Notes under the pieces: model-generated
What the model was told of the DNA's origin: nothing
Database searches by the model: none
What the model saw: the letters and a program-made list of their open reading frames with translations, nothing else
Translations under genes and position numbers: made by a program
Shown: in pieces, positions 1 to 8,103 of the stretch
Numbering within the stretch: the stretch's first letter is position 1
Layout of the letters: every line of letters starts with the position of its first letter
From: Dehalococcoidia bacterium
GTDB lineage: Bacteria; Chloroflexota; Dehalococcoidia; Lucifugimonadales; GCA-2712585
Length of the DNA: 64,000 bases
NCBI GenBank assembly: GCA_965238215.1
Contig: OZ250180.1
Coordinates: forward strand, 1,884,111-1,948,110
Direction of reading: 5' to 3'

Positions 1-469
1 TGAAGGCGGGCTACGCATCGTGTCATCGGACACTTGTGAAATTGAATTACCCCTCGCCCCGTCACAGGAATTTGCCGATCTGCCAGAGAGAATGAGGCAA
101 AGGATGGAGAATGATCCCAACTTCGCTTACACCAGTATGAATTTGGATATAATGACCAGAAGGGAATCCAGGTACACAAGACTCGGTCCAGAATTCAGGC
201 GAATCTGGAATGGCTTTTATGCATATGAAGACAAGCTACGGAGGTATCCCTACTACTCACTTGTCTTTGTGGAGGAACTGTCAACCTGGGATGGTGTGCC
301 CACGGACAGAACAGTTGTCGAAATCCACCTCGAGCATATGGTGGACCTGCGCACAATTCCATCGGAATACTGGATTCCGAGCTGCATTGCGGGAGTCCCG
401 GTGCATATCGTCGTAGGCAACCACTTAATTTATTCTGATGCATCTCCTGATGAAGCAGGTATTCAGTAA
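1..469 (+). CDS. Cassette A lipoprotein-family protein (5' truncated by window edge), putative protease pro-domain homolog
   Basis: Frame is open from the window start (EGGLRIVSSDTCEIELP...). Clear paralog of 788-1321 and 1712-2248, sharing C..PS.E and the C-terminal IPSCIAGVPV. Confidence 0.8.
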   Translation, partial: EGGLRIVSSDTCEIELPLAPSQEFADLPERMRQRMENDPNFAYTSMNLDIMTRRESRYTRLGPEFRRIWNGFYAYEDKLRRYPYYSLVFVEELSTWDGVPTDRTVVEIHLEHMVDLRTIPSEYWIPSCIAGVPVHIVVGNHLIYSDASPDEAGIQ

Positions 470-519
470 CTGTTCAGGAACAAATATAGAGAATGAACGA
501 GAAATAAGGAGGAAAAACA

Positions 520-609
520 ATGGGACACAGACAAAGTAACCACAGACCCCTTCGCGCAGGGATAGCCATAAAACGCACCGGCGCTCCCCCAACCCGATCA
601 TCGCCCTGA
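520..609 (+). pseudogene. 29-aa 5' stub of a protease gene (MGHRQSNHRPLRAGIAIKRTGAPPTRSSP*)
   Basis: Strong RBS AAGGAGG before ATG 520. NHRPLRAGI matches the N-terminus of 2290-6030 (NHRPLRGGI) and of 1360-1542. Not in the ORF track. Confidence 0.8.
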
Positions 610-644
610 CTCCAAATCCCTCCCCTACCAACTCTTCCCCGCAG

Positions 645-865
645 ACCCCAATCTCCCATCTTCCTCGCCCACCCCCATCGGCCCAATGTGCCACAACAAC
701 ATTGACAAACACAAACACATATTCTACTATCCACCCATGAAGAGCACGAGAAGCTCACAAACCAGCCAACCAAAGGAGGTGACACCCATGAAAACACACA
801 ACTGGCAAACAAAGGCCCTCATCCTCTTCATAGCAGCAGTTGCTTTCTGCCTGACCACGGCTTGC
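645..865 (+). repeat. Cassette leader direct repeat, copy 1 (promoter, leader, RBS, signal peptide)
   Basis: Aligns with about 1580-1790 at an offset of about 924 bp; e.g. ATGAAGAGCACGAGAAGCTCA and GCCAACCAAAGGAGGTGACACCCATGAAAACA are identical. Confidence 0.85.
702..730 (+). promoter_or_regulatory. Sigma70-type promoter TTGACA-N17-TACTAT
   Basis: Near-consensus -35/-10 with 17-bp spacing upstream of 788. The copy at 1623 keeps TTGACA. Confidence 0.65.
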
Positions 866-1321
866 GAGCCGTGGCAGGTTGAAAGGATCATACCATCCGG
901 GTCTTGTGTGAATGACGCGGCTCTGACGCCATCGGCGGAATTCCTAGACCTATATGAGAGATGGAAGGATGAGCGAGGCTTAGATGAAAATACCTCGATG
1001 GAAGATTTGGCTAAGCTCCCAGGCTATTGGGACGCACGTAATGCAAGATTCGCCAGACTAGGGCCCAAATATGAGCAGATCGGTAACAAGATCAATGCCG
1101 AATACACAGAACGGATCATGCGCCACCCCTTCTACCGCGGACGCGTTCTCTGGTACTTGGAAGATGAAAGAGGCTGGCTAACAGATACGGTAGTTCTTGA
1201 AATTGATGTTCACAAGGTGGTGAGTCCGTACAGGTTTCCACCGGGAGACCGAATTCCGGAATGCATGGATGGTGTACCAGTGATCTATTTTCTGAACCGG
1301 ACATGGGCAACTCCTGGCTAA
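788..1321 (+). CDS. Cassette B lipoprotein, putative protease pro-domain homolog
   Basis: AAGGAGGT RBS; signal peptide MKTHNWQTKALILFIAAVAFCLTTA-C with a lipobox-like Cys; C-terminal IPECMDGVPV. Confidence 0.85.
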   Translation: MKTHNWQTKALILFIAAVAFCLTTACEPWQVERIIPSGSCVNDAALTPSAEFLDLYERWKDERGLDENTSMEDLAKLPGYWDARNARFARLGPKYEQIGNKINAEYTERIMRHPFYRGRVLWYLEDERGWLTDTVVLEIDVHKVVSPYRFPPGDRIPECMDGVPVIYFLNRTWATPG

Positions 1322-1359
1322 GTACAGAGCAAAAAATCTAGAATAAGGAGAAATAAGAA

Positions 1360-1542
1360 ATGGGACATCGCAGAACCAATCACAGACCCCTACGAGCCGG
1401 AATCGGTGTTACGCCGAATCTTGGAATACCAGGCTACGGCACGTTAACCGGCATTGCAAGACGAAATTCCGACGGCGTACTGGTTGCAGTAACCAACCTG
1501 CACATCATCATCGGCAACCCTATATTTACGCAATCTCTCTGA
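1360..1542 (+). pseudogene. 60-aa 5' stub of a protease gene, retaining the TNLH catalytic-His motif
   Basis: MGHRRTNHRPLRAGIG...GTLTGIARR...VAVTNLHI aligns with aa 1-50 of 2290-6030, then stops. Confidence 0.85.
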
Positions 1543-1579
1543 ATCTCGCTTCACCCCCACCAACGCTTCCTGCTTCTCC

Positions 1580-1790
1580 AACCCAATTTCCCAACCCCCC
1601 CGGCCCAAAGTGACACACCTGTTTGACAACAACGAACATACATACTATCCTCTATCCAATGAAGAGCACGAGAAGCTCAACAAAACCCGCCAACCAAAGG
1701 AGGTGACACCCATGAAAACAACCAACTGGCAAACAAAGGCCCTCACGCTCTTCATCGCAGCCGCTGCCCTCTGGCTGGCAACCGCCTGCA
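1580..1790 (+). repeat. Cassette leader direct repeat, copy 2
   Basis: Homologous to 645-865. Confidence 0.85.
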
Positions 1791-2248
1791 CGACGTACTA
1801 TCCCATCAACTATCCCGTTAACGGGATACGGGTAATATCTTCGGAACCATGCGAAATCGATGTACCCCTCGTGCCATCACAAGAATACGTCAAGCTCGCA
1901 GAGCAACTGAAGCAACTGGGAGATCAGGTTGATTACATGGAATCACGGGAGATAAAGATAAATGCGCGTGACGCGTGGTATGCAAGACTCAAGCCGGAAT
2001 TCAACCGCATCCTGGAAGTCGTTCGAACCTACGCGGACCTGCTCAGGAAGTACCCCAACTTCGAACTGACAATAGTAGAAGAGATGAGAACTTGGGATGG
2101 TGCGTGGACAGACAAGCTGGTTGTCGTAGTCTACGTTTCCCACTTGTTTGATCCCCGTACGATCCCTCCGGAAGAACGAATACCTAGTTGCATTGCCGGA
2201 GTCCCGGTGCATTTCATGGTCCAACCGACGGCAACCCCAGGCTACTAA
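1712..2248 (+). CDS. Cassette C lipoprotein, putative protease pro-domain homolog
   Basis: RBS; signal peptide ending LATA-C; LLRKYPNF...DGAWTD..VVVYV...IPPEERIPSCIAGVPV. Confidence 0.85.
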   Translation: MKTTNWQTKALTLFIAAAALWLATACTTYYPINYPVNGIRVISSEPCEIDVPLVPSQEYVKLAEQLKQLGDQVDYMESREIKINARDAWYARLKPEFNRILEVVRTYADLLRKYPNFELTIVEEMRTWDGAWTDKLVVVVYVSHLFDPRTIPPEERIPSCIAGVPVHFMVQPTATPGY

Positions 2249-2289
2249 CCAGATAAGCGTCCCAAAAATCAGAATTAAGGAGTTGAACA

Positions 2290-5200
2290 ATGGCTACAGA
2301 TAGAACCCAAAATCACAGACCGCTCAGAGGCGGCATCGCCGTATGGCCCAGCACCGGCCAAGGCGCACGCGGAACATTGACCGCCGTGGCAAGGCGTGTC
2401 GGTTTGGATACAAAGGTGCTTGTAACGAACATTCACGTCGTCAGCACAAGTGCTGACAATTACACATTGACTGAGGGAGAGCATCTATACCAAGGTGGCA
2501 CTGATTCCTCAGACCGGATAGGCAAAACCTTCACTTACACGGACGGCACAAATAGTTGGCTTCCAGTGGTGTCATCCAGTAAATATCAGGACGGAGAAGA
2601 GTACCGCAATGCGGGTGACATTACTCTGCTGGATGTCAAGGATGGCGTCGCTACTGACTTTGGCCTTCACGTGGATGATGGTTCTGGCGGGCATGAGCAG
2701 AGACCCATAGTGTTTCCACCTGTGAACCCTCTCCCAAACATGCGGGTGCAGGTTTTTGGTTCCGTCACCGGCCCGGGTGAAGCCCGCATCACCGTTGTAG
2801 ATGGCGACCAAGAGGCAAGGCGTATCGCAGTGAAGATTTCCGATACAGAGAAAATATACTACCGGTTTAAGAATACGGTCGTTCTAAATCGGGTGCCGCA
2901 TCCCGGGCAGAAAGGTGATTCAGGGGCGGCTTGCGTATGGGAAGATGATGATGGCAATTATCGGATGGTGTGCATTCTATATGGAGGCATTACAACTAAA
3001 AATCCAAGAACTGGAGAGCTTAGAAGCCTCACAGGATACGCCATGCCAGCCAGGTTAGCAGAATCACTCCTTGGGATATACTTCGGCGTAAAGGCTCCAA
3101 CTGTCAACCTCGGCTTGGACATAAAAGTGGTGCCAGGCGCTCCCATCTATATTCCACCTACTGTGACTGCCGTCGAGCCAGATGCCACAATCTCTTCATA
3201 CAGATGGGAAGTCGTTGCGCCTTGGCCTGTCATTCAGGCCGTCGCTCCCTTCCTTCCAGATCTTACTCAGAGGAACCTTTACTTTAATGCCCCCGACCAT
3301 GCTACCTACTTCGAGTTGAAACTCATCGTCACCGACAGCAACGGTGCCAAGGCCAGCAGCAAGATCCGTGTGCTAGTCAACAACCCCCCCACCGCCAAAC
3401 CCGGCATCAACCGGGTCGTCCCCGTCCACACGCCGCCAAGTCTCACCCCCGCGGTGACCCTCCTCGGCGCAGCCGAGGACCCCGACGCCGGCCACGTTGG
3501 AGACATGAGATACTCTTGGAGAGTAGACTCAGCCCCAGGCAGCAGCACCCGTTCAGCTACAACCGGCCCAACAATTACCTTGAGCGATGCCAACGTGGCG
3601 GAGCCTACCTTCACCCCCACCGCCATTGGCGACTACGTCTTCACCCTCACCGTCAAGGATCCCGGCGACCTCACCCACTCGGCCAGTGTCACCATCCACG
3701 CCTGTCCCGCCAACGAGACCTCCGATTGGTTCGACACCGGCGAAACCCGGTGTCACAACAACGCCCTGCAGAAGCGGCAGACCCGGCGACTAAGCAATGG
3801 CGTCATCGAGTTCCAGTGGATCGACGATCCGGACAACGAAGTCTGGGGAGCGTGGCAAGACACTTCAGCATCCCACCGCAACGAAGAGCCGGGAGACTGG
3901 ATAAACAGAGGAGGGCCATCCGGCTTCTATAACGTCTCCTTCCAATCGCAGCAGCGGACCGTAGCCTACGAGAAACAGCAGCGGCGCACCAGCGCGTGCG
4001 GCAACACGGAGGAGAGATGGATAGCCGCGAGCCGTAGGGAATCACGAACCAAGCTGGCGGGAAGAACCCTATTCCGGCCGCGCACACCGATAGACAGTCA
4101 GTGGGAAGTGCGGCGCATGAACAACCAGATCCAGGTGAAAGTGACCTCCCTGCCCCCCGTCTACGATGCCATCATAGAAATTCGTACGCGGCTGGAGAGT
4201 GGCAGCGGGTCGGATAGCGTCACCGTCATCAAGGCCATAGGGACAACCCTGAACAGCTGGGTGACGGTGCTTTCCAGCAGTGACGATAGGTGGAGCGAAG
4301 GGGAATGGACTGCGAAAATCCGGTTTGAGAACGACGAGAAGAACTCCAACTACTCAGCCACCAAGCCCGTCACCGCGCCGGCGGTGCCCACCACTCCGCC
4401 GCCCCCAGTGAGGTGGGTTGACACGAATCCTCTCCAAATCCGAGGTTGTGGGCCTACCAGGGAGAAGCAGCAGGTGAACGCCAACAACACCAGCGAGACC
4501 CGATGGGTAGCCGCCCCTGAAGACCTGGTTTGGGGTGAATTGGAGAACGATGGCGAGGCCACTGAAGTCACCACGGCCTGGGAAGACCAGGGCAGTCCCT
4601 CCCTGTTCGGTGGAGTGTGCAAGCAACTCCAGCGCCGCACTGCCACGACGACGCAGAACAAGCGCGAGAGGAACCAATGCGGCGGCTACAGGCCCGCTGA
4701 ACCCGTTGTCATCGAGAGGACCGACTACCAGCGTGTCACAATTGCTGAAACCTGGGGCAACTGGCGCGATACCGGAAACACGCGTGAGCACCCTGTTGAA
4801 CTCATCATAGAGAAGGAGCAGGAGCGCTTCTCGTCCCCCTGCAACCGCAGAGAAACCCGGTGGGTAGCTTGTGCGTGGGAAGACGTAAGCCCACCCGAAA
4901 CCCGCAACAGAGTCACAGGCAACTGGATGGATACGGGCAACCAGCGGGAGAACCAGGTGTTGCTCATCATTGAGAAGGAGCAGACCCGCACCGTAACGTG
5001 GGAGAAGAAGCAGCAATGTACCGGTGGCGGCACCGATCTCTACAGATGGGTACCGACATCCAGGACCGAAACCCGGTGGGTAGCTTGTGCGTGGGAAGAC
5101 GTAAGCCCACCCGAAACCCGCAATATAGTCGCAGGCAACTGGATGGACACGGGCAACCAGCGAGAGAACCAGGTTTTGCTCATCATGGAGAAAGAGCAAA

Positions 5201-6030
5201 CACGCACCATCACTTGGGAGAAGAAGCAGCAATGTACCGGTGGCGGCGCCACTCTCTACAGATGGGTACCGACATCCAGGACCGAAACCCGGTGGAGGAT
5301 AATACCGGAGGTCTGCGGCTCGTGGCGAGACGTGTCGGGAACGACCAGAGTCAAGACATACGGTACATACCGGAACGTGGTGCCTGCCGTATACACTGGC
5401 TCCGGAGCCAGTCGGAGGAGGAAGCAGACCCGTACCAACACACGCGAGAAACAGCAGAGCTGCACCACCAACGCTCCCTACAACAACACCCGGTATCGTT
5501 GGATTGCGACTACCTCCACCACAGAAACTCGGTGGGTTGCTGCCCCGGTTGTTACTCATAGCTACCGTGACATAACCCCGGCCGTCTATTCCGGCTGTGG
5601 CCCAAACAGGAGAAGAAAACAAGAGTGCATCCGTCTCGGGCACGAGGACACCAGGTGGCGTTCAGCCTCAGAACCGGATCCCTGGGGTCGGTGGTACAAC
5701 ACGGGACATACCCGCAATAGGGTTGTTGGAAGTTGGACGAATACCAGCACATACAGGGGTTGCGGCCCAAATCGCGAAAGAAAGCAAACGCGTACTACCA
5801 CTTGGGAAAATGAGCAAGAGCGGCAGAGTCATTGCGGCAACGTGGAAAGCAGATGGGTCTCAGATTCCAGCACGGACACCCAATGGGTTGCTGCCCCCGA
5901 AGCGGATCCCTGGGGACCGTGGACGGACACAGGTAACCAGCGCGAGAACCAGATACTGCTAATCATCGAGAAGCAGCAGAAGAGCACTTCCAGCTGCGGC
6001 AACGTCAAGTACAGATGGGTAGCCGTATAG
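2290..6030 (+). CDS. 1246-aa trypsin-clan serine protease with Ig/PKD-like domains and TSP1-like Trp/Arg/Cys repeats
   Basis: Putative triad His49 (TNIHV), Asp110 (GDITLL), Ser211 (GDSGA). Ig-like motifs (YSW...YVFTLTVKD). Repeated WGxWxDTG...R.Q.R...CG...RW. No signal peptide. Confidence 0.85.
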   Translation: MATDRTQNHRPLRGGIAVWPSTGQGARGTLTAVARRVGLDTKVLVTNIHVVSTSADNYTLTEGEHLYQGGTDSSDRIGKTFTYTDGTNSWLPVVSSSKYQDGEEYRNAGDITLLDVKDGVATDFGLHVDDGSGGHEQRPIVFPPVNPLPNMRVQVFGSVTGPGEARITVVDGDQEARRIAVKISDTEKIYYRFKNTVVLNRVPHPGQKGDSGAACVWEDDDGNYRMVCILYGGITTKNPRTGELRSLTGYAMPARLAESLLGIYFGVKAPTVNLGLDIKVVPGAPIYIPPTVTAVEPDATISSYRWEVVAPWPVIQAVAPFLPDLTQRNLYFNAPDHATYFELKLIVTDSNGAKASSKIRVLVNNPPTAKPGINRVVPVHTPPSLTPAVTLLGAAEDPDAGHVGDMRYSWRVDSAPGSSTRSATTGPTITLSDANVAEPTFTPTAIGDYVFTLTVKDPGDLTHSASVTIHACPANETSDWFDTGETRCHNNALQKRQTRRLSNGVIEFQWIDDPDNEVWGAWQDTSASHRNEEPGDWINRGGPSGFYNVSFQSQQRTVAYEKQQRRTSACGNTEERWIAASRRESRTKLAGRTLFRPRTPIDSQWEVRRMNNQIQVKVTSLPPVYDAIIEIRTRLESGSGSDSVTVIKAIGTTLNSWVTVLSSSDDRWSEGEWTAKIRFENDEKNSNYSATKPVTAPAVPTTPPPPVRWVDTNPLQIRGCGPTREKQQVNANNTSETRWVAAPEDLVWGELENDGEATEVTTAWEDQGSPSLFGGVCKQLQRRTATTTQNKRERNQCGGYRPAEPVVIERTDYQRVTIAETWGNWRDTGNTREHPVELIIEKEQERFSSPCNRRETRWVACAWEDVSPPETRNRVTGNWMDTGNQRENQVLLIIEKEQTRTVTWEKKQQCTGGGTDLYRWVPTSRTETRWVACAWEDVSPPETRNIVAGNWMDTGNQRENQVLLIMEKEQTRTITWEKKQQCTGGGATLYRWVPTSRTETRWRIIPEVCGSWRDVSGTTRVKTYGTYRNVVPAVYTGSGASRRRKQTRTNTREKQQSCTTNAPYNNTRYRWIATTSTTETRWVAAPVVTHSYRDITPAVYSGCGPNRRRKQECIRLGHEDTRWRSASEPDPWGRWYNTGHTRNRVVGSWTNTSTYRGCGPNRERKQTRTTTWENEQERQSHCGNVESRWVSDSSTDTQWVAAPEADPWGPWTDTGNQRENQILLIIEKQQKSTSSCGNVKYRWVAV
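4852..5295 (+). repeat. Intragenic 216-bp (72-aa) tandem duplication
   Basis: GAAACCCGGTGG recurs at 4852, 5068 and 5284; the two units are near-identical. Confidence 0.9.
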
Positions 6031-6064
6031 GCCTCAGGCACTCCGGTTGCACTAACCAGCAAAA

Positions 6065-6095
6065 GGGGGGCGGCTCCGCCAAGGAGCCGCCCCCC
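6065..6095. terminator. Intrinsic terminator hairpin between convergent genes
   Basis: GGGGGGCGGCTCC-GCCAA-GGAGCCGCCCCCC, a 13-bp perfect stem preceded by AAAA. Confidence 0.75.
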
Positions 6096-6128
6096 TCCTC
6101 CGCAATTCTTGATCCCTTAAGGAAACCC

Positions 6129-6770
6129 TCATCCCCCCGCCCTCCTCGCCGTCACCAGATACACCGGATCAGAAAACCCCTTCGGTGCCGGACTCCGGTC
6201 CTCCGCCCGAATCCCCTCATACCCTCCCGCCTTCTGCAGGTACATCTTCACCAACGTCATCCGCTGCTCGTCGCTGCACCCCTGCCATATCCGCACCGCC
6301 TTGGTGGGGAACATCCGGTTGGAGAAAGTTATCACCAGGGGGCATCCGGGCCTGAGTATCCGGCACATGTCCCTGAACACCTCCACCGGACGCGTCAGAT
6401 ATTGTACCGACACCGTCAGAATCACCCCTTCGAAGCGGGCGTCCTCAAACGGCAGTCGAGGCTCGCTGTTGACGTCATGGACAACGAAATCGTCCAGCTG
6501 GGGGTTCTCCCGCATCTCTACGGCATTCAACCCCAGCCCCACCATCCGAGCTTTGACGAAATCCGCGGGTAGGTGGGACCGCCAGCTGCTCATCAGGTCC
6601 AGGATGACGCCGTTGGCGGGCAGGAATTCCTGAAATATGCGCCCTATCTGTTCGATGGCCTCGTCGTCGATGTGCACGACAAGCCGTGGCTCCCGGTAGA
6701 AAAGGGCGTCGTTGCCCTCGTCCATCCGGTCGAAGAAGTTGTCCTGCAAACCCGGTTCCACAAGGCCCAT
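6129..6770 (-). CDS. Class I SAM-dependent methyltransferase (type 11)
   Basis: FYREPRLVVHID, ILDLMSSWRSHLP, GLGLN..EM..NP and FSNRMFPTKA motifs. Start chosen at ATG 6770. Confidence 0.85.
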   Translation of the reverse strand: MGLVEPGLQDNFFDRMDEGNDALFYREPRLVVHIDDEAIEQIGRIFQEFLPANGVILDLMSSWRSHLPADFVKARMVGLGLNAVEMRENPQLDDFVVHDVNSEPRLPFEDARFEGVILTVSVQYLTRPVEVFRDMCRILRPGCPLVITFSNRMFPTKAVRIWQGCSDEQRMTLVKMYLQKAGGYEGIRAEDRSPAPKGFSDPVYLVTARRAGG

Positions 6771-6887: not shown

Positions 6888-7238
6888 TTGCGGGGGTGTT
6901 TCTTGGCCAACTACCTGCTTATTGAATCCCGCGACCCCTTTGAGTACGGCGACGCCCGCTATATGTACGACATGGCGGCAGACCTGGCTCGCAAGGGCAA
7001 CAGCGTTACCCTCTTCCTCGTCCAGAACGGCGTCCTAGTTACCCGTCCTGGCGTGAGGAACAACCCCCTCAACCGCCTCTTCCAGCAGAGCCAGACCGTC
7101 AGGGTTCTGGCGGACGAGTTCTCCCTGCGGGAGCGCGGCATTCCCCCTACCCCTCTGGTGGGTGGCGTTGAGGTGGCCGACGTGGACTTCCTGGTGGACC
7201 TGCTGGCAGAAGAAGATACTAAGGCCCTTTGGCATTAA
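6888..7238 (+). CDS. DsrE/F/H-family protein
   Basis: YLLIESRDPFE...VTLFLVQNGV...DEFSLRERGI. True start may be TTG 6903. Confidence 0.8.
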   Translation: MRGCFLANYLLIESRDPFEYGDARYMYDMAADLARKGNSVTLFLVQNGVLVTRPGVRNNPLNRLFQQSQTVRVLADEFSLRERGIPPTPLVGGVEVADVDFLVDLLAEEDTKALWH

Positions 7239-7320
7239 AGAGCCGTAGGATAGGACGAAATTGCCTTTGGTATCTTCCGACGTCATCATACTGAAAACCC
7301 TTTGGCACTGAGGAGCAGCT

Positions 7321-7710
7321 ATGGCAACCATTACAATCGCCCTTATGGACCCGCCTTACGAGGCTGAAACCACCACCACGGCCATGCGAATCATGGACGC
7401 CGCGGTGCGAAAGGGCCACCAGGTGAACGTGTTTGCCTACGAAGGCGCCGTCAACCTGACGATGAAAGACCAGGCCGCCCATCCCAATCCGGTTAAGGGC
7501 ACCACCGCTGAGGAGGAAGACCACCCCTCCAGTTCCCGGTTCATCGCCGGCCTGCTCGCCACCGAGCAGGTGGACTGGATCAACTGCGGCCTCTGCGTCG
7601 ACGAGCGCGGTTCCGGCAACTGGATAGACGGCGCCCGCCGCGGTGCGCCGGCGGACTTCTTCAAGTGGTCTCAGGAAAGCTCTAACACCCTGGTAATCGG
7701 CACCAAGTAG
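7321..7710 (+). CDS. DsrE-family protein with CxxC
   Basis: DPPY, VFAYEGAV and NCGLCVDERG motifs. Confidence 0.85.
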   Translation: MATITIALMDPPYEAETTTTAMRIMDAAVRKGHQVNVFAYEGAVNLTMKDQAAHPNPVKGTTAEEEDHPSSSRFIAGLLATEQVDWINCGLCVDERGSGNWIDGARRGAPADFFKWSQESSNTLVIGTK

Positions 7711-7719
7711 GAGGGTCGC

Positions 7720-8103
7720 ATGTCCAAAATCCTTTCCATCGTGGAACGGGCCTACCACGGCACCCTGGAGGAGCAGGACGATACCATCCTCTGGATGTCT
7801 CACATTCTCAAGAACGCCGGGGCGGATATCTCCGTCCTCCTCCGCTCTAACGCCGTGAACTACGCCGTTAGGGGCCAGGATGCCAGCGGCATAACCATCG
7901 GCGGCGTTCCACTTTCCAACCCCCCGAAGCTGGACGAGGACGTAGAGAGCCTCATTGGGGCGGGCGTGGATACATACGTGGTCAGGGAGGACGTGGAAGA
8001 CCGGGGCATCAGCGAGTCGGAGCTAGTTGATGGGATCAAGCTTGTTGACCGGGAAGGTCTGGCAGACCTCTTCGATGCCCACGACGCTATCTGGCACTGG
8101 TAA
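7720..8103 (+). CDS. DsrE/F-family protein
   Basis: VLLRSNAVNYAV...VREDVEDRGI...IWHW; operonic with 7321-7710. Confidence 0.8.
   Translation: MSKILSIVERAYHGTLEEQDDTILWMSHILKNAGADISVLLRSNAVNYAVRGQDASGITIGGVPLSNPPKLDEDVESLIGAGVDTYVVREDVEDRGISESELVDGIKLVDREGLADLFDAHDAIWHW

Follow-up and report, generated by a model that had tools for sequence, protein, structure and literature searches.

A putative protease N-terminal domain encoded as a separate lipoprotein in cassette arrays of a Dehalococcoidia bacterium

Here we describe a gene pair, embedded in an array of related cassettes, at the start of a 64,000-nt stretch of the genome of a Dehalococcoidia bacterium (contig OZ250180.1; hereafter the window, to whose coordinates all positions refer unless another locus is named). 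Reading of the sequence and its open reading frames (ORFs) places three tandem cassettes on the plus strand at 1-6030, each composed of a ~60-nt leader, a lipoprotein gene, a Shine-Dalgarno sequence and the ATG of a frame that begins M..(R/T).NHRPLR.GI. Only in the third unit (U3) is this frame complete (2290-6030), encoding a 1246-aa protein with a serine protease at its head; units 1 and 2 (U1, U2) contain stubs of 29 and 60 aa. We consider it rather probable that the lipoprotein is the NAL1_N-type, pro-domain-like N-terminal accessory domain of this protease, provided in trans, and that it serves as a type-specific clamp, mainly as a guard. What the data show is the homology, the split into two genes, the synteny conserved across loci, the arrays of cassettes and, as a prediction, an interface between the two proteins.

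A preliminary description of this DNA had proposed that pro-domain and catalytic domain are encoded in trans, and it had named a profile match as one test in advance. The protease head was therefore compared with its single-chain relatives. An exhaustive phmmer search with the head yielded 168 relatives (E ≤ 1e-3), of which the best 150 were classified: in 105 the protease domain begins at Met1, 34 give partial alignments, 2 have short extensions and 9 an extension of at least 60 aa, while a tenth extended relative (P0208) falls among the partial alignments. A hidden Markov model (HMM) built from the lipoprotein-family alignment, termed A1, matches ten of the 150 at 32-60 bits, and these are exactly the relatives with an N-terminal extension; the other 140 are unmatched. 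The match sits on the extension itself (residues ~8-85; 71-145 in P0164) and uses profile positions ~81-170, corresponding to the C-terminal half of the lipoprotein, and seven of the ten matches stay at E ≤ 1e-4 when scored for a library of 1.8 billion proteins. In the fused relatives, the domain runs directly into "HHRPVVGGI…GTLTG…VTN.H". The break between the two window genes falls in the linker, with 8 tail and 8 leader residues before HRP compared to ~15 linker residues in the fused P0136. P0164, the fused form with a lipoprotein signal peptide of its own, carries both cysteines of the lipoprotein family, whereas the second Cys is missing in 8 of the 9 fused forms that have no signal peptide. 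Taken together, the alignments support homology between the C-terminal half of the lipoprotein and the domain directly preceding the catalytic domain in single-chain relatives. The separate encoding of the N-terminal domain is thus borne out; the function of a cleaved foldase, which the term pro-domain implies, is a proposal.

A link to a named family comes from four ~300-aa paralogues (P0045, P0052, P0059, P0054), all of which pass the Pfam family NAL1_N (PF25608; gathering score 27 bits) with 31-36 bits. Each contains two copies of the domain, and they are homologous to the lipoprotein at E 1e-24 to 1e-18. Pfam and NCBIfam searches of the window's lipoprotein gave nothing relevant, and Pfam gave no NAL1_N match at E ≤ 0.01 for the ten fused relatives. 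Against the PDB sequences, phmmer with the lipoprotein and the protease head produced chance matches only (such as Kelch and cyclin C), and profile A1 produced nothing useful (one match at E 6.7). When longer proteins containing the lipoprotein in fused form were sought, P0238, a two-domain lipoprotein of 368 aa, was the only one to emerge, which is weak evidence.

The two-gene arrangement recurs beyond the window. We annotated 17 loci from 8 assemblies with the lipoprotein and protease HMMs (the genomes with G handles and the named metagenome-assembled genomes may overlap) and found a membrane-anchored NAL1_N-like ORF directly upstream of 17 of the 18 protease genes with an intact 5' end. The exception, L016 in genome G240, has the weakest protease match, and no lipoprotein-like ORF was found within 3 kb upstream of it at E ≤ 0.01. 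Two of the genomes, G231 and G083, represent a different family of the class; there the partners combine unrelated signal peptides with a tandem pair of domains, so the pairing is independent of the conserved leader described below. Within the window, the preliminary description had noted that stop codon, ribosome-binding site (RBS) and ATG occur in all three units and had dismissed a sequencing slip on that ground. The signals do recur (U1: TAA 467-469, AAGGAGG 506-512, ATG 520; U2: TAA 1319-1321, AAGGAG 1345-1350, ATG 1360), with the qualification that units 1 and 2 lead into stubs only, and in U3 the two genes lie in different frames across a gap of 41 nt. Together with this recurring architecture, a contig from a second study (run X2) that matches 1732-3400 with 0 differences and spans the stop/ATG junction confirms that no sequencing slip is involved. 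It is therefore extremely improbable that the lipoprotein is a functionally unlinked neighbour, or that a fused gene was broken by sequencing or assembly error or by recent pseudogenisation. The sole point for such an accident is that the window's lipoprotein has no direct Pfam match; it is opposed by the same stop/RBS/ATG architecture in 17 of 18 genes from 8 assemblies, the identical second contig, the different frames with stops between them, the lipoprotein's own signal peptide and its profile match to fused relatives. The split is real and old, and the two products very likely form a cognate pair.

In a tree of 91 protease domains (quick method, midpoint root), fused forms and forms lacking the N-terminal domain are interleaved in a Rosetta-stone pattern, with 7 changes, at least 3 of them forced by starred branches. 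On this tree, either fusion or fission has happened repeatedly during evolution. The family is rare: among 301 genomes sampled from the class, the protease profile matched in 4, including the window's own, which consists of one contig of 3,055,267 bp and is 96.7% complete. That genome holds two further loci of the same build ~600 kb away, L002 (G000:C1:1271500-1284000, minus strand) and L003, with proteases of 1556 and 1537 aa. In the literature, where coverage of subscription journals was incomplete, we found no naturally split NAL1_N/protease pair and no such arrays, no paper mentioning PF25608 and none treating NAL1 together with alpha-lytic protease.

The U3 lipoprotein starts with MKTTNWQTKALTLFIAAAALWLATAC, in which signal peptide and lipobox Cys26 occupy 1712-1789 (Cys26 codon, 1787-1789). 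The mature part comprises a helical N-terminal half with Cys47, an NAL1_N-like domain at aa ~90-170 (1979-2221) with Cys160, and a C-terminal tail, QPTATPGY (2222-2245). Its C-terminal half reads ...LLRKYPNFELTIVEEMRTWDGAWTDKLVVVVYVSHLFDPRTIPPEERIPSCIAGVPVHFMVQPTATPGY and follows the pattern previously given for it, except that the spacing of that pattern is slightly short in two places. We identified 87 homologues of 97-312 aa. An alignment of 48 sequences confirms the signal peptide, lipid-anchor Cys and conserved Cys pair noted earlier: residues 1-26, which end in the lipobox Cys, hardly vary, Cys26 is invariant, and Cys47, Ile157, Pro158, Cys160, Gly163 and Val166 are at least 90% conserved. 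Lgt and LspA are encoded in the window's genome (PF01790, 169.7 bits; PF01252, 118.6 bits), and by its lipobox Cys and the presence of these enzymes the U3 product qualifies, as judged from sequence, as a bacterial lipoprotein. An AlphaFold model (predicted local distance difference test, pLDDT, 88) shows a helical N-terminal half followed by a C-terminal helix and three-stranded sheet.

The leader of the family is far more constant than what follows it. Four cassettes have in common a ~180-nt block, made up of a promoter-like site, the 5' untranslated region and the 26 signal-peptide codons, with 75-93% identity. In the cassettes of L001, the locus of the window, identity is likewise 75-93% for the signal-peptide codons and the ~100 nt preceding the ATG, compared to 31-64% for the mature lipoprotein part. 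Promoter-like sites are seen ahead of the U2 and U3 cassettes (Table 1). Across the 87 homologues the signal peptide, MKT.NWQTKALTLFIAA.AL, hardly changes; within the window's genome it is restricted to the three loci. A constant leader on a variable mature part resembles the variable-lipoprotein families of mycoplasmas. A search of window positions 1-6400 against Rfam (E ≤ 1) gave 0 matches, placing the conserved 5' untranslated region in no known RNA family. As a variant of the arrangement, L003 (4190-5252, reverse-complement; G000:C1 ~1292250-1293310) has two NAL1_N-like genes beside its protease that carry N-terminal transmembrane anchors rather than a lipoprotein signal, with a 44-aa remnant of the conserved signal peptide just upstream.

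The protease gene opens with MATDRTQNHRPLRGGIAVWPSTGQGARGTLTAVARRVGLDTKVLVTNIHV (ATG at 2290), which includes the R..HRPL.GGI start previously pointed out. Its open frame reaches only one codon past the ATG (1247 versus 1246 aa), so no signal peptide can be hidden upstream, and the earlier statement that the enzyme lacks one holds. The head comprises the first ~270 aa, with the protease domain starting at residue ~8; it lacks an NAL1_N domain as well as any signal peptide of the Sec, Tat or lipoprotein type. His49 (2434-2436), Asp110 (2617-2619) and Ser211 in GDSG (2920-2922) form the catalytic triad and are invariant in alignments of 35 and 16 sequences. A model of the head (pLDDT 87; predicted template modelling score, pTM, 0.87) gave 389 Foldseek matches in the PDB at E ≤ 1e-3, led by 2sfa (1.6e-9), NAL1 (8hau_F, 1e-8) and SGPB (3sgb_E, 1.8e-8), so that its nearest solved folds are Streptomyces S1 proteases of the streptogrisin/alpha-lytic type and rice NAL1. 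Searched against the PDB sequences, the protease profile likewise found NAL1 as its best protease match (E 0.004). Pfam and NCBIfam searches of the head gave nothing relevant. With the triad in order, the GDSG motif and a modelled double beta-barrel, the head is by all indications an S1 chymotrypsin-fold serine protease.

Behind the head, the giant protein has a K319L-like PKD domain at aa 388-469 (3451-3696). A segment of ~330 aa (aa ~365-697; 3382-4380) is almost identical to residues ~756-1096 of the L002 paralogue, with nearly 100% identity over aa 458-690; the protease heads, by comparison, share only 34-42% identity. The contrast suggests recent gene conversion or a mosaic construction. 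The C-terminal ~550 aa (4400-6030) consist of Trp/Cys-rich repeats of ~72 aa (…ETRWVA…W..W.DTGN.RE…EKEQ.R…C…), including a 216-nt tandem repeat at 4852-5295 (2.1 copies, 92% matches), and all three giant paralogues terminate in RWVA(A/V). No Pfam, NCBIfam, PHROG or PADLOC family matched the repeats, and PADLOC and PHROGs returned 0 families for lipoprotein and protease.

A second test named in advance was an interaction between the two products. We predicted the complex of protease head 1-290 and mature lipoprotein 27-178 with custom alignments in three runs, alongside 3 controls. The interface score ipSAE was 0.72, 0.77 and 0.76 in the three runs and 0.00 in the best control; the same mark is reached by 58 of 80 solved complexes and by 2 of 110 mismatched pairs. 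The runs have at least 79% of contacts in common, and partner pLDDT is at least 82. In the predicted interface, lipoprotein strand 118-123 pairs with protease residues 98-103, and the lipoprotein tail (171-178) lies against protease residues 178-182, 208-211, 232-234 and 248-250, with H49 and D110, which is the catalytic cleft. The anticipated interaction is thus predicted (0.76 versus 0.00), and the models support binding of the lipoprotein to the protease head.

Binding could also mean that the lipoprotein is a non-inhibitory docking or assembly subunit that tethers the active giant protease to the cell surface, oligomerises it, or both, as in NAL1. The partner is membrane-anchored in every split locus, and the giant's PKD and repeat modules are typical of surface proteins. 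In rice NAL1, an inter-monomer interface of 1,991 Å2 between the ATP-binding domain (ABD) and the serine protease domain builds the trimer and is needed for activity (PMC12012508). However, with the triad and the substrate-binding strand 232-234 both covered in the model, substrates would be blocked, the orphan arrays are left unaccounted for, and the same export problem arises as for the other readings. We regard an assembly subunit as quite unlikely.

The U1 lipoprotein gene starts ~110 nt ahead of the window and ends in ...IPSCIAGVPVHIVVGNHLIYSDASPDEAGIQ, and the flank in the window's genome contains a fourth cassette (L001 5042-5782), making an array of four. Across 13 loci (L001-L013) we counted 18 stubs, covering protease HMM positions 1 to ~21-55 and each following a lipoprotein ORF. 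The stub ORFs measure 29-64 aa, none of them retaining anything of the protease beyond the catalytic His motif. Their junctions fall into at least four classes (after GIAI, after SD, after KVL and after NLH), and their lengths are narrowly distributed, where random deletions would give a broader spread. Stubs may provide homology arms through which cassettes are acquired. Lipoproteins that are orphans in the window have full-length partners elsewhere: the U2 type precedes a protease of at least 966 aa in L006 (lipoprotein orthologues 84% identical; the first 36 aa of stub 2 identical to the full-length L006 protease), and the U1 type precedes a full-length protease in L005. Lipoprotein type and protease type are correlated (Mantel rho 0.54, 0 of 999 permutations). 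For the mature part, the ratio of nonsynonymous to synonymous substitution rates (dN/dS) between orthologues is 0.26-0.77 in 11 of 12 pairs, and dS is 0 in the twelfth. At ~737-1449, a relative of the U2 cassette (lipoprotein and stub) with 90-99% similarity is covered by contigs of three metatranscriptomic runs from two studies. Such contigs are a weak hint that orphan cassettes are transcribed, DNA carry-over being possible. One RNA run with a relative is labelled "sponge metagenome". None of the RNA-library contigs lies on the mature part of the U3 lipoprotein or on the protease, where the contigs show neither transcription nor silence.

Table 1. Positions of the cassette features in the window
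Feature	Position	Strand	Remarks
U1 lipoprotein paralogue, C-terminal 155 of 192 aa	2..469	+	L001 6002-6580; lipoprotein HMM E 2.8e-65
Protease stub 1, 29 aa, MGHRQSNHRPLRAGIAI... then unrelated sequence	520..609	+	Protease HMM positions 1-21, E 5.8e-05
Conserved ~180-nt block	620-865, 1545-1790		Also L001 4842-5120, 5802-6080
Promoter-like TTGACA-17-TACTAT, upstream of U2 lipoprotein	702..730	+	
U2 lipoprotein paralogue, intact, 177 aa, orphan type ...NRTWATPG	788..1321	+	HMM E 5.7e-55
Protease stub 2, 60 aa, homologous through ...VAVTNLH (catalytic His motif), then diverges	1360..1542	+	Protease HMM 1-55, E 9.7e-17
Promoter-like TTGACA-17-TATCCT, upstream of U3 lipoprotein	1623..1651	+	
U3 lipoprotein, 178 aa	1712..2248	+	ATG 1712, TAA 2246-2248
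RBS AAGGAG, 7 nt ahead of protease ATG	2277..2282	+	
S1 (chymotrypsin-fold) protease head of 1246-aa protein	2290..3100	+	
Giant-protein body, PKD domain and repeats	3101..6030	+	

Downstream of the locus, at 6888-8103, lie three small adjoining ORFs of 116, 129 and 127 aa, which, judged by eye from their translations, resemble a DsrE/DsrF/DsrH-type sulfur-relay trio.

From these data we infer binding, inhibition, localisation and physiological role as follows. Given its signal peptide and lipobox Cys, and with Lgt and LspA encoded in the genome, the lipoprotein would be exported and lipid-anchored on the outside of the membrane of a monoderm-type Dehalococcoidia cell; the conserved Cys pair is a further extracytoplasmic mark. 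The C-terminal alpha/beta domain of the lipoprotein would dock on the cognate head by an added beta-strand (118-123 on 98-103), placing the free tail (171-178) in the substrate cleft over His49/Asp110/Ser211; with the tail so placed, the gene break would mimic the post-cleavage state of a Pro-region/protease complex. The predicted geometry and the alpha-lytic/streptogrisin neighbourhood of the head fit a pro-domain-like inhibiting clamp, which may also act as a folding template. We suppose that this clamp would be mainly a surface guard of an immunity-like kind rather than a foldase alone, because orphan lipoproteins are kept beside stubs, the types travel together and the protease is leaderless. 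The variable head on a shared body also leans towards a guard or immunity role.

Alternatively, the lipoprotein could be a dedicated steric chaperone, a trans pro-domain comparable to Lif, which folds the emerging head outside the membrane once and is then degraded or released, with the orphans as leftovers. The fold of the head is nearest to the Pro-dependent S1 subfamily (2sfa, 3sgb, alpha-lytic protease), and the Pro region of alpha-lytic protease binds in the way modelled here, with its tail in the active site and an added beta-strand. A Pro region works in trans (PMC2289522), and membrane-anchored, separately encoded Lif/LipH lie beside their client gene (PMC3352829, PMC7046727, PMC13381987). 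Yet a steric chaperone needs an unfolded client outside, and nothing in the protease marks it for Sec, Tat or lipoprotein export; an outside-membrane foldase is hard to reconcile with a leaderless client. Among the best 150 of the 168 relatives, moreover, 105 of the 116 with complete N-termini have no NAL1_N-like domain in cis, no partner was found in L016, and intact orphan lipoproteins with dN/dS <1 are left unaccounted for. A pure chaperone is therefore possible but doubtful, and we prefer the inhibiting clamp with a guard function.

An extension of the guard idea would be an undescribed polymorphic effector system of mirrored polarity, in which a leaderless giant carries a variable N-terminal S1 "warhead", the split-off pro-domain has been exapted as a surface immunity lipoprotein, orphan cassettes are collected, stubs possibly act as homology arms and recombination exchanges the heads on a shared body, with competition among Dehalococcoidia or host interaction as the setting. 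We put this forward only tentatively. Cassette arrays, stubs, paired types and a mosaic body recall polymorphic toxins; the mirrored polarity and the shortness of the stubs (29-64 aa) do not. In Pfam, PADLOC and PHROG searches, no recognised trafficking or secretion domain was found beyond PKD-type matches.

Several observations weigh against the lipoprotein being the protease's accessory domain and clamp. The window's lipoprotein itself has no NAL1_N match at E ≤ 1, and only 4 of 48 family members match NAL1_N at E ≤ 0.1. Foldseek with the lipoprotein model gave no match at E ≤ 1e-3. Pairwise comparison of the model with NAL1 residues 86-173 (Z 5.7, rmsd 4.4, 82 aligned) and with alpha-lytic Pro regions (Z 4.7 for 4pro_C, 4.6 for 2pro_C, 4.5 for 3pro_C) stays within background: in an unbiased structure search of the PDB, unrelated helical hairpins reach Z 4.7, no match reaches Z ≥ 5, and NAL1 and the Pro regions are absent from the best 50 matches. 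The lipoprotein domain is predicted to lie outside the membrane and the protease has no signal peptide, with no export gene conserved beside the three loci of the window's genome. The complex score expresses model confidence and may echo solved Pro-region/protease or NAL1 structures. As for the orphans, dN/dS fails to separate them from paired lipoproteins (orphans are no higher), decayed cassettes exist (a frameshift in L013, fragments in L003 and L012), and the Mantel correlation is expected from linkage alone and cannot tell co-evolution from linkage. Finally, in rice NAL1 the homologous domain is a permanent ATP-binding assembly module rather than a cleaved pro-peptide or inhibitor (PMC12012508).

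In this locus, nature made the cut at the linker and put a lipid anchor on the detached piece. It thereby offers a natural system for asking what NAL1_N, also a domain of a rice yield gene, does, and a test case for whether a tethered inhibitor or immunity protein can arise from a pro-domain. It is also a way to learn how a leaderless protease of 1200-1500 aa reaches an extracytoplasmic partner, and the cassette arrays may be a new kind of polymorphic conflict locus in a little-known uncultured lineage.

N-terminal pro- or accessory domains of S1 proteases are textbook cis elements. Already known are NAL1_N as a Pfam domain, S1 pro-regions acting in trans in engineered form, and membrane-anchored, separately encoded lipase chaperones. 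Rice NAL1 shares the homologous domain pair, with an alpha/beta domain of ~80 aa directly before an S1 protease that opens ...GTLG...TN.HV. Its N-terminal domain contacts the protease domain of another chain, the ABD (aa 89-172) being a permanent inter-subunit module, but NAL1 is a single chain that is cytosolic or nuclear, binds ATP and forms a hexameric cage (PMC12012508). In the system described here, by contrast, the domain belongs to an exported lipoprotein of its own, which has a helical N-terminal half in addition and a Cys pair of disulfide type, and the protease heads a 1246-aa repeat protein. The Pro regions of alpha-lytic protease and streptogrisins, which are steric chaperones and inhibitors, are likewise N-terminal partners of an S1 protease from the same structural neighbourhood, and a C-terminal tail in the active site is the binding mode predicted here. 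They differ in being made in cis and cleaved off, whereas here the break is genetic and the partner lipid-anchored; the structural similarity to them (Z 4.5-4.7) is within noise. Engineered constructs show the alpha-lytic Pro region acting in trans (PMC2289522). Lif/LipH are similar in being membrane-anchored, separately encoded, client-specific steric chaperones with a gene beside that of the client (PMC3352829, PMC7046727, PMC13381987). Their all-helical fold is unrelated, however, and their client is a lipase with a signal peptide and type II secretion. We know of no orphan-copy arrays for Lif/LipH. Closer to a guard are Spi of streptococcal SpeB and other inhibitors of the MEROPS I9/I29 type, in which a propeptide homologue has its own gene and acts as cognate inhibitor; Spi adjoins the protease gene. 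To our knowledge, these inhibitors act on cysteine or subtilisin-type proteases, are soluble rather than lipoproteins and do not form multi-cassette arrays. NisI and SpaI, the lipoprotein immunity proteins of lantibiotics, are precedents for a surface lipoprotein as guard. Contact-dependent inhibition (CDI) and Rhs loci combine a variable catalytic head, an adjoining cognate small protein and intact small genes beside truncated toxin fragments; compared to them, the head here is N-terminal, the partner lies upstream, and the stubs keep 29-64 residues rather than a whole toxin domain.

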